64,000 nt of DNA, from assembly GCA_965116795.1 (NCBI GenBank), contig OZ220716.1, forward strand, positions 1,290,503 through 1,354,502, read 5' to 3'. The DNA comes from Gammaproteobacteria bacterium (GTDB lineage Bacteria; Pseudomonadota; Gammaproteobacteria; JAJFKG01). The position numbers and the translations under genes were made by a program. The notes under the pieces are model-generated. The model was given only the letters and a program-made list of their open reading frames with translations, was not told the DNA's origin and made no database searches. This document shows, piece after piece, positions 7,178 through 8,690 of this stretch (within the stretch, counting starts at the first letter, position 1; each line of letters starts with the position of its first letter).

Positions 7178-7252
7178 AAATATAGGCTAATTTGACTGGC
7201 TATACCTTCGATAGTGAGCGTTAATTACAACGTAACGTTAACTTAACTGGAG
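7178..7252 (+). promoter_or_regulatory. Cassette promoter-like motif plus RBS (cassette A)
   Basis: TTGACTGGCTAT...CGATAGTGAGCGTTAAT then ACTGGAG; near-identical at 61921-61990 and 62472-62543. Confidence 0.6.
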
Positions 7253-7260
7253 AAAAAATC

Positions 7261-7572
7261 ATGAGCACATTAATCGACAGACTGTTTTACAAACCCCTTA
7301 TTTGGGATGTGAAAAATACCCATTGCACTAAACAAGAAGAAAACGCATTGTTAGACATTTTTGAAAAAGCCATGCAACGCGCCGCACTCGTGCCTGCCAG
7401 TCAACTGCGCTTTGAATTGACGCACATTGCCCCTAAGCAAACAACATTGCACCCTTTTGTTCTAACGATGCACTTCGATAGGGTCTGCGGGCAAATGCAA
7501 TGGCGAGGGGTGTTTGAAAATGCAGATAACAGCAAATCACTGGAAGTGCTAGGCGCTTTAGAAAAAGAGTAA
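7261..7572 (+). CDS. Cassette A, ~100-aa paralog-family protein of unknown function
   Basis: Strong RBS; homolog at 62552; aligns by eye with cassette B, C and X proteins. Confidence 0.8.
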   Translation: MSTLIDRLFYKPLIWDVKNTHCTKQEENALLDIFEKAMQRAALVPASQLRFELTHIAPKQTTLHPFVLTMHFDRVCGQMQWRGVFENADNSKSLEVLGALEKE

Positions 7573-7589
7573 CCCACCCTTTACACCCA

Positions 7590-7627
7590 GCCACAGGCGC
7601 CAACGTTTGGTGTCTGTGGCCTTTTTT
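7590..7627 (+). terminator. Intrinsic terminator-like hairpin with CCAACGTT core
   Basis: GCCACAGGCGCCAA-CGT-TTGGTGTCTGTGGC followed by a T-run. Confidence 0.75.
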
Positions 7628-7706
7628 CAGGGCGCAACGTCTTTACCCCTATCTTTTCAATTAGCATGACAGCGCCCAAATTTATTTGTTATTCGACAAA
7701 ATTTCT

Positions 7707-7820
7707 CATCAGTAAACACTGCATCGATTAATAGCAAAAATAGTGGCTATTTAGCGAAATATAACTTGCTATAACCTGCAGATAGAGCGATTAATGTAAC
7801 TGTTAAAACAAAACTGGAGA
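7707..7820 (+). promoter_or_regulatory. Cassette B upstream unit: CATCAGT-N4-ACTGC palindrome, CTTGCTAT...GAGCGATTAAT motif, RBS
   Basis: Same motif order seen at 8288, 61898, 62449, 62997 and 63583. Confidence 0.55.
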
Positions 7821-7825
7821 TTAAC

Positions 7826-8158
7826 ATGAAAACAGAAATTAACAACGAATATCACACCGAATATTACAAAAAATATTACACTAACATTGTGGACAATGAA
7901 GGCTTGACGATTGCTGAAGTTAACGCCGCATTAGAAGCTTTCGAAAAAGCGTTAGATATTGCCTTTCAAAATTCAGAAGATGCGCTGGGCTTTGATTTGA
8001 AAGGCTTTACGCCGCAATGCGCGCACATTGAAAATTTTGATTTTTCGATAGAGCGACAAATTGTTGACGGACAAATTCAGTATTGGGGAATTTTCACCGG
8101 CGAAGATGACAAAGCCTTTTACCTTCAGGGCTGGATAAGAAACAACAACAACGATTAG
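7826..8158 (+). CDS. Cassette B, ~100-aa paralog-family protein
   Basis: RBS ACTGGAG; homolog at 63117. Confidence 0.8.
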   Translation: MKTEINNEYHTEYYKKYYTNIVDNEGLTIAEVNAALEAFEKALDIAFQNSEDALGFDLKGFTPQCAHIENFDFSIERQIVDGQIQYWGIFTGEDDKAFYLQGWIRNNNND

Positions 8159-8171
8159 CTCTCCAGGCTTT

Positions 8172-8211
8172 GGCTGCACACGCCCAACGTTGGTATGTGC
8201 GGCCTTTTTTT
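8172..8211 (+). terminator. Intrinsic terminator-like hairpin with CCAACGTTGG core
   Basis: GGCTGCACACGCCCAACGTTGGTATGTGCGGCC followed by a T-run. Confidence 0.7.
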
Positions 8212-8390
8212 ATGTGCGTGCCGCACTAACCCCACCTATTTTTTTCTCCACAAACGCCACTGTGTTGGCTGTGTTAAATAACCAAACCATCAGTTAATAC
8301 TGCTGCAATTAATAGCATTTTTTCGCTGGATATAGTGCCACACCCGAGCATTACTTATCACACCTTGAAAATTAAAGAAGGATTATCACC

Positions 8391-8690
8391 ATGTCAACCG
8401 ATGTTGAAAATCGCACGCCAGTTATATTCTACGTGCACAACACCCGTTGCAATGATGACGAGCTGCGACTCTTGCTAACCAACTTTGAAATGACACTGCA
8501 ATATGCGGCTAATTTTACAAACACGGTATTCAGGTTTGACTTCAAGTATTCAATGCCATCACACAGCCTATTATATCCGTTTAATTTAACCATGAAACGT
8601 CATCGCGTTGATAGTGCTTTGCAATGGCATGGCACGTTTAAACATTGTAGTGGCTTGAAGCAATTGCAGGTTATGGGAATTTTATTATGA
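8391..8690 (+). CDS. Cassette C, ~100-aa paralog-family protein, overlapping the endolysin start
   Basis: RBS AAGGA; ATGA overlap with lysozyme; homolog at 63686. Confidence 0.8.
   Translation: MSTDVENRTPVIFYVHNTRCNDDELRLLLTNFEMTLQYAANFTNTVFRFDFKYSMPSHSLLYPFNLTMKRHRVDSALQWHGTFKHCSGLKQLQVMGILL

Follow-up and report, generated by a model that had tools for sequence, protein, structure and literature searches.

The closest described counterparts of the array reported here are the PeSL of T4-type phages, intergenic repeats composed of a terminator hairpin, a promoter motif and an RBS that stand before small ORFs, with ORFs gained and lost between related phages at these units (PMC2839356; PMC4122927). 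The PeSL promoters match the sigma-70 consensus, and the units flank unrelated ORFans of lytic phages. Ca. Heliusvirales have been described by nine marker genes and a terminase clade (PMC11283538); the portion of that account used here mentions neither a motif nor a promoter nor Proteobacteria. Our array resembles PeSL in having a repeated unit with a stem-loop terminator, a promoter-like motif and an RBS, and in gaining and losing ORFs at the units: two of its forms, XABC and ABC, switch at the leader, and there are empty slots. It differs in that its leader is non-canonical rather than a sigma-70 consensus promoter, in that it lies in a temperate phage (an integrated prophage with a serine recombinase and DUF2924), and in that its cargo is one paralog family, placed inside the lysis module. 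The likeness is known here from sequence, whereas mini-circles and promoter activity are features of PeSL. By analogy, the array appears to work like PeSL cassettes without being one of them.

Phage morons, as found in lambdoid prophages, are extra genes with their own promoter and terminator signals between conserved late genes, and they are usually single, unrelated genes. Like morons, the array lies between the same flanking genes in some siblings and is absent from others (13 of 16 slots are filled by it), and its genes are lower in G+C than the neighbouring late genes (0.38–0.44 vs 0.45–0.46). Unlike morons, it stacks several paralogs, and its last gene, C, has no terminator. Integron cassettes are promoterless and attC-ended with IntI nearby; the array genes have their own leader and an ordinary terminator (none for C). 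The window, by which we mean the whole 64,000-nt stretch of DNA analysed, holds two such arrays, and their features are as follows.

6401..6700, + strand: DUF6127 gene, upstream marker of the lysis module (PF19622, E 1.8e-15)
6721..7170, + strand: putative holin, allele 1 (phrog_6637, E 1e-33; PF11351, E 0.95; hydropathy peak 2.29)
7196..7225, + strand: leader two-box motif of A, likely promoter
7261..7572, + strand: paralog A, 103 aa, near neutral, pLDDT 90.6
7590..7627, + strand: terminator-like hairpin and T-run after A
7707..7722, + strand: CATCAG-N5-ACTGC box before B
7765..7795, + strand: leader two-box motif of B
7826..8158, + strand: paralog B, 110 aa, net charge -12, pLDDT 86.9
8172..8211, + strand: terminator-like hairpin and T-run after B
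8288..8303, + strand: CATCAG-N5-ACTGC box before C
8326..8355, + strand: leader two-box motif of C
8391..8690, + strand: paralog C, 99 aa, basic, without terminator, stop overlapping the endolysin start
8687..9133, + strand: endolysin, a phage lysozyme (PF00959, E 6e-38)
61898..61965, + strand: leader of X in the second array; the box overlaps the holin stop codon, then the two-box motif follows
62000..62311, + strand: paralog X, 103 aa, separate family lineage
62330..62369, + strand: terminator after X, of a type that persists in empty slots elsewhere
62552..62863, + strand: paralog A', 93% aa identity to A; leader at 62449-62516
63117..63449, + strand: paralog B', 95% to B; box at 62997-63012
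63686..63985, + strand: paralog C', 85% to C; leader at 63583-63650; overlaps the next endolysin

Three ORFs of ~100 aa with a period of 550–590 bp had been proposed in a first-pass annotation, and A, B and C are indeed present as genes of 103, 110 and 99 aa whose starts are spaced 565 and 565 nt. The holin label of the upstream gene is weak: position and hydropathy fit, but phrog_6637 is a family of unknown function and Pfam GTA_holin_3TM (PF11351) is reached only at E 0.95. Two holin alleles occur that are ~70% alike; the 3' end of allele 1 has no CATCAG box, while allele 2 ends inside the box. An IS200-like transposase, as we take it by eye to be, lies inside the second holin (60969-61424), and what is presumably a HicAB-like pair, also judged by eye, stands between a tail gene and DUF6127 (59894-60521). 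On the opposite strand after the endolysin is an HTH_17 excisionase-like gene (9284-9670) with 2 genome matches only.

A, B, C and X (at 62 kb) are divergent true homologues. When pairwise local alignment scores were judged against 3000 shuffles, those of A-B (86), A-C (156), A-X (61) and B-C (72) were each beaten by 0/3000; B-X (46) was marginal, with 3/3000 as high, and C-X (29; 410/3000 as high) falls below significance as a pair by itself. A profile of 117 proteins taken from other organisms only matched all 26 intact genome copies at E 6e-27 to 2e-12. The shuffle tests (A-B, A-C, B-C, A-X) and the outside-built profile thus agree with the proposal of one divergent paralog family. Structure prediction suggests a single alpha/beta fold common to the paralogs, kept even though the types are only 17–48% alike; the models of A and B (pLDDT 90.6 and 86.9) both run strand, helix, strand, short helix, three strands. 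Aromatic and glycine positions are conserved (W81, G83, F85, F34, F66). B is strongly acidic (net charge -12, and -12 to -18 across five copies), A is near neutral and C basic; the outside members have a net charge close to zero (median -2), so DNA mimicry is not a property of the family overall. No membrane segment was seen in the paralogs (hydropathy peak 0.30–1.09), and among outside members 1/117 exceeded 1.6. All types tested (A, B, C and D) are under purifying selection, with dN/dS of 0.06–0.18 (D from one pair only; X and E stand outside the calculation). A tree of 36 rows unites A, B, C and D with three outside proteins in one clade (99/96) and places X and E elsewhere on long branches; the ten rows fell together as one clade in 0/200 bootstrap trees, and a 128-row quick tree agrees.

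The family had gone unrecognised in the first reading, and it is absent from Pfam, NCBIfam, PADLOC and PHROGs as searched: no family in the first three was matched by more than 1/125 members at E 0.05, and PHROGs gave none for the sequences scanned (A, B, C and two outside members). A sequence search of solved structures returned thymidylate synthase alone (E 0.06), which we rejected. Foldseek found no match at E 0.001 in PDB or BFVD, and the best scores in the VIA structural search were Z 6.3, 5.9 and 4.7. Its top fold rows for both models are pseudopilin and pilin heads, at scores within the tool's background range (top row Z 6.3, rmsd 3.2, 74 residues aligned). The T2SS minor pseudopilins GspI/EpsI/XcpV (3ci0_I, 2ret_A, 5bw0_B) share with the paralog models a helix on a three-strand meander (Z 5.3–6.3, rmsd ~3, 73–75 residues aligned, a score within background); unlike pseudopilins, the paralogs lack the hydrophobic N-terminal helix and have extra strands. 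The host genome gave no match to T2SS pseudopilin I, and a T4SS coupling protein likewise had no match. In the ESM Atlas, A had no usable match, and an outside member's best were unnamed clusters (0.77). A missing structural match does not itself prove a new fold. No likeness to known anti-defence proteins was found by sequence or fold. Our literature search, which did not cover supplements and in which a nameless family is hard to find, turned up no published description of the paralogs. The new elements are the protein family itself and the fact that it has expanded to a variable array of paralogs.

The two-box motif CT(G/T)G(C/A)TAT...GAGCGTTAAT, claimed before each ORF, stands 61–65 nt upstream of the ATG in 28/28 cassettes with a 5' end, as scored with a matrix built from the same 28 cassettes. 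Its consensus in this genome is CT(G/T)G(C/A)T-N17-CGTTAAT, with leaders of different types merely 55–87% alike. On the genome the matrix finds the 28 cassettes and 9 weaker sites (a shuffled genome gives 11); 3 of the 9 head a gene upstream of the DUF2924-recombinase operon, and a pattern search adds a fourth prophage copy. The fixed spacing and fixed distance to the start codon make the leader a promoter candidate, likely of the phage early or lysogeny type. A canonical sigma-70 -10 box is absent from it, and a sigma-70 scan scored a site at C only (9/12); its CGTT is, as we take it, reminiscent of ECF promoters. The prophage also encodes a sigma-like ORF at genome 1267092–1267694 (phrog_1740, E 4.5e-5), which could make the leader a late promoter instead. 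The 30-base leader is not peculiar to this family: throughout the phage group it stands before many small genes that are unrelated. Outside this genome, CTTG(A/G)(T/C)-N17-CGTT(A/C)(A/C)T heads the family gene in 122/137 loci with a full 5' end, and in phage loci its spacing to the gene matches that of the cassettes here. Two pattern scans gave at least 289 leader sites in viral loci, at least 254 with a downstream ORF; these ORFs, often in arrays, include at least 98 that are DUF3489-like, at least 64 DUF6900-like, at least 23 of this family and at least 10 amidoligase-like. The DUF3489/DUF6900/amidoligase arrays of DUF2924/serine-recombinase prophages have the same leader and spacing; they have periods of 270–700 nt and consist of unrelated genes near the methylase-terminase region, whereas ours consists of paralogs at the lysis end. 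We found no published description of those leader-headed arrays, and neither DUF3489 nor DUF6900 is matched in this genome. Unrelated small-gene arrays with the same leader also occur in IMG/VR phages, and one locus (L280) has five leader-motif copies in 1.9 kb.

The CATCAGT-N4-ACTGC palindrome reported at 7707 and 8288 is in place (7707–7722 and 8288–8303), but its palindromy does not extend beyond the CAGT-N4-ACTG core. The strict box has 17 genome sites on the + strand, all at cassettes, and 4 on the - strand (expected ~0.6 per strand), and a CATCAG box stands at 24/28 leaders. It had been called missing before A of the first array; it is missing there, yet it is found before 3/6 A copies. 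A relaxed pattern has 108 genome sites, mostly away from cassettes, so no regulon could be drawn. The hairpins and T-runs described at the ends of A and B are both present (-28.9 kcal/mol, z -4.0 after A; -22.1 kcal/mol, z -1.1 after B, which is weak as a fold statistic), and terminator-like hairpins follow A, B, X and D. The box and leader fold poorly as RNA (z -0.2 to -1.4). A search of Rfam over 6300–10700 gave two snoRNA rows only, which we judged to be chance. The description of the units as self-contained mini-cassettes fails for C, whose missing terminator is joined by a stop that overlaps the endolysin start (ATGA).

The genome (2.45 Mb, a single contig) carries many copies of one prophage type, with a serine recombinase, DUF2924, a ParB-methylase and head and tail genes. 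Its 16 lysis-module slots comprise 13 with the family, 1 that is empty and 2, in more distant prophages, with unrelated large ORFs. The latter fill the holin-lysozyme slot at genome 95.6–96.8 kb (L388, 1608–2801) and 364.2–366.9 kb (L389, 1202–3881), and they have no PHROG match. Across the 13 sibling-prophage loci there are 29 copies, which fall into six types (A, B, C, D, E, X) and are arranged as ABC (four times), XABC, an IS-cut B'C, A-C, C (three times), XDE, XD and D; 3/29 copies are broken or IS-cut. As a single genome shows seven array types and empty slots besides, the idea of an expandable array varying in number and order among related prophages is borne out. The companion idea, shuffling through the repeated units, stands in part. 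The holin-X, holin-A and X-A junctions switch at or near the leader, but some losses leave a terminator behind: a stub of leader/box and X-type terminator remains at genome 1152k, 1397k, 1479k and 1541k (three C-only loci and the empty locus), and the A-C locus retains a B-type terminator. Terminators left in empty slots mean that not every loss was a leader-to-leader crossover. A second run of the same study also shows the 1152k joint, and a contig from another study's run spans 6423–9115 (the ABC array) with 253 differences; the array's presence on that contig rules out an assembly artefact. Nucleotide identity between siblings is 92–95% for A and 93–98% for B, as against 79–88% for C, 68–86% for lysozyme and 78–88% for DUF6127, and dS is 0.20 for A and 0.14 for B vs 0.84 for C, 0.82 for lysozyme and 0.74 for NlpC (C and phage core genes, 0.74–0.96). 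Since A-B is far less diverged than its flanks, we infer that the block spread recently among siblings; A is joined to both holin alleles.

Outside this genome the family belongs to the accessory genes of phages and usually lies at the lysis module. Searching with a profile yielded 144 representatives at 50% identity, a handful of which are chance or own rows; record titles of the outside matches are mostly alphaproteobacterial, and Ralstonia is among the plasmid and phage matches. Word-seeded protein searches, which returned 6, 1 and 5 rows, overlooked most relatives. Of 159 outside loci, 153 have one copy of the gene, 1 has two (L430, 1.2 kb apart) and 5 have none that was detected, and no tandem paralog array was found among them; scans with P0009, D and P0013 gave no locus, and this survey leaves out the three closest outside relatives. 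The gene lies after a holin in 67 loci, after lysozyme in 36 and directly before lysozyme in 40, and some homologues end unrelated lysis modules with other endolysin types or adjoin a ParB-methylase/DUF3489 block. Among sampled genomes it occurs in 1/40 relatives (a 3' remnant), 3/400 from the phylum and 4/400 from the class, and it is absent from a same-genus genome (90% complete). One protein (P0014) has two family domains in tandem, and another (P0173) fuses a ParB-methylase N-terminus to the family's 3' half, probably as a deletion product. In an alphaproteobacterial genome (L420 and L421, around 5001) the family gene and leader are flanked by repeated large ORFs that all belong to one other family.

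In 81/135 scorable outside loci (13 more were too short), the family gene is directly adjoined at its 3' end by a convergent gene. The commonest, in 48 loci, is one that we take to be HrgA-like and that has no Pfam, PADLOC or NCBIfam match; 13 are PDC-S11/DUF4268, with single cases of GajB, a CBASS cyclase, type I restriction, DndA and a methylase. The outside loci are related phages, and these raw counts are not independent: at 90%, 130 full-length loci collapse into 39 clusters, of which 10 have the HrgA-like neighbour and 6 DUF4268. Remnants of the 3' half of the family gene travel with the convergent neighbour. This genome has no match to either of the two commonest neighbours. The HrgA-like gene itself (315–330 aa, tail to tail with the family gene, as at 3886–4872 of L055 and in 47 similar loci) occurs in phages of widely differing G+C and is a candidate uncatalogued defence gene.

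The explanation that we favour, with a probability of roughly 0.4, is a variable array of paralogs that is leader-driven and recombined among siblings, and whose soluble products inhibit anti-phage defences. The architectural part of this account, taken alone, is very probably correct. C would be the resident gene and correspond to the lone copy that is coupled to the endolysin in related phages; A, B, C and D would come from duplication in one lineage, and X and E from another family branch. Recombination across the 70-nt leader and flanking genes, plausibly carried out by the prophage's Sak4-like annealase (phrog_124, E 1e-45), would then have passed copies of the A-B block from sibling to sibling; relaxed recombination by phage recombinases is reportedly treated in published work (PMC3945230, PMC5928155). 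Every paralog would have a short transcript of its own. The terminators after A and B part holin from endolysin and should block read-through unless the phage antiterminates, so the C leader would also drive the endolysin. In the least certain step, the proteins would bind a defence component, for example a restriction-type nuclease, with divergent paralogs (acidic B, basic C) covering different targets. This role as counter-defence inhibitors is a best guess, favoured because the proteins are small, soluble, diversified and without an evident enzyme fold, and because they are co-regulated with small accessory genes and sited at a defence hotspot. It is weakened by the lack of likeness to known inhibitors, and the hotspot may be just positional, since defence genes beside the homologues may only mark the prophage end. 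A stronger version, in which the family is a new counter-defence or exclusion fold whose six specificity variants are traded as promoter-gene-terminator cassettes, giving the phages of the lysogen one common arsenal that they keep up to date, is conceivable, if on the unlikely side.

The same cassettes could instead protect the lysogen, each paralog keeping a different sibling phage from superinfecting or from being induced. With 16 related lysis-module loci in the host, sibling conflict should be intense and an expanded panel would pay; the moron-like position with its own leader fits as well, and pseudopilin and pilin heads as top fold rows would suggest receptor interference. Most exclusion proteins do have a signal or membrane segment, however, and the paralogs have neither; the host lacks a T2SS pseudopilin I match, PADLOC on 125 members gave single weak rows only, and a near-identical A-B block shared by siblings speaks against self/non-self specificity. 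We therefore hold this to be a rather unlikely role.

It is improbable that the proteins regulate lysis, as cytoplasmic modulators of endolysin or holin whose cassettes tune burst timing. C, like 40 outside copies, stands directly before lysozyme and overlaps the endolysin start, its divergence keeps pace with lysozyme, and outside copies lie directly after a holin in 67 cases and shortly after lysozyme in 36. Yet one sibling slot is empty, two distant prophages hold unrelated genes there, and the leader is common to non-lysis genes. Of the options raised in the first-pass annotation, we favour this one least, because homologues stand by unrelated endolysins or, beside ParB-methylase/DUF3489, far from lysis genes.

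The convergent neighbours suggest another role, that of an immunity or antitoxin partner of nuclease-like genes, with the array here made up of orphan antidotes. The HrgA-like gene (48 loci) and DUF4268/PDC-S11 (13) sit at the 3' end with stops that often overlap, and 3'-half remnants stay with that neighbour. Against this, many homologues have no such neighbour (36 run straight into lysozyme), the neighbours are unrelated to one another and neither of the two is in this genome; toxin-antitoxin operons are also unlike a convergent arrangement. Such a pairing seems to us doubtful at best.

Regulators or host-takeover factors, for instance modulators of RNA polymerase or of lysis-lysogeny among siblings, would suit a soluble alpha/beta domain of small size in which aromatic and glycine positions are conserved, the two-domain fusion P0014 and co-regulation with winged-helix DUF3489 genes. 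The top fold rows, though, contain no DNA-binding or known regulator fold, and a core regulator is unlikely to vanish from some siblings or to split into six types, which leaves little room for this reading. That rampant recombination in a polylysogen left the extra copies behind as near-neutral by-products, as 3/29 broken or IS-cut copies and several empty slots might suggest, is largely refuted by the selection signal (dN/dS 0.06–0.18 for A, B, C and D) and also sits badly with a fold kept at 17–48% likeness and with the spread of A-B across siblings, making it very improbable indeed.

An uncatalogued phage protein family with six natural variants in one genome makes the target directly testable, and the siblings catch cassette evolution under way, with a resident gene, recently spread copies and empty slots. 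If, as we favour, the proteins disable defences, they would provide a new counter-defence fold and a marker of defence hotspots in temperate phages of a large and little-studied group; otherwise, the array would be a neat example of paralogs undergoing PeSL-like shuffling.

Finally, the window carries other cargo. Very large repeat-rich ORFs follow the prophage ends (10681–18089 and 47306–54952), with Sel1 repeats by Pfam and WD40-like repeats by eye, and they look like host-directed effector cargo; the first is split into two overlapping frames near 11055–11136. An 843-aa ORF at 22068–24599 combines an OTU-like protease with an OTT_1508-like deaminase domain and is effector-like, and a Wadjet-like four-gene block with JetD and SMC-like Pfam matches lies at 39477–46296.
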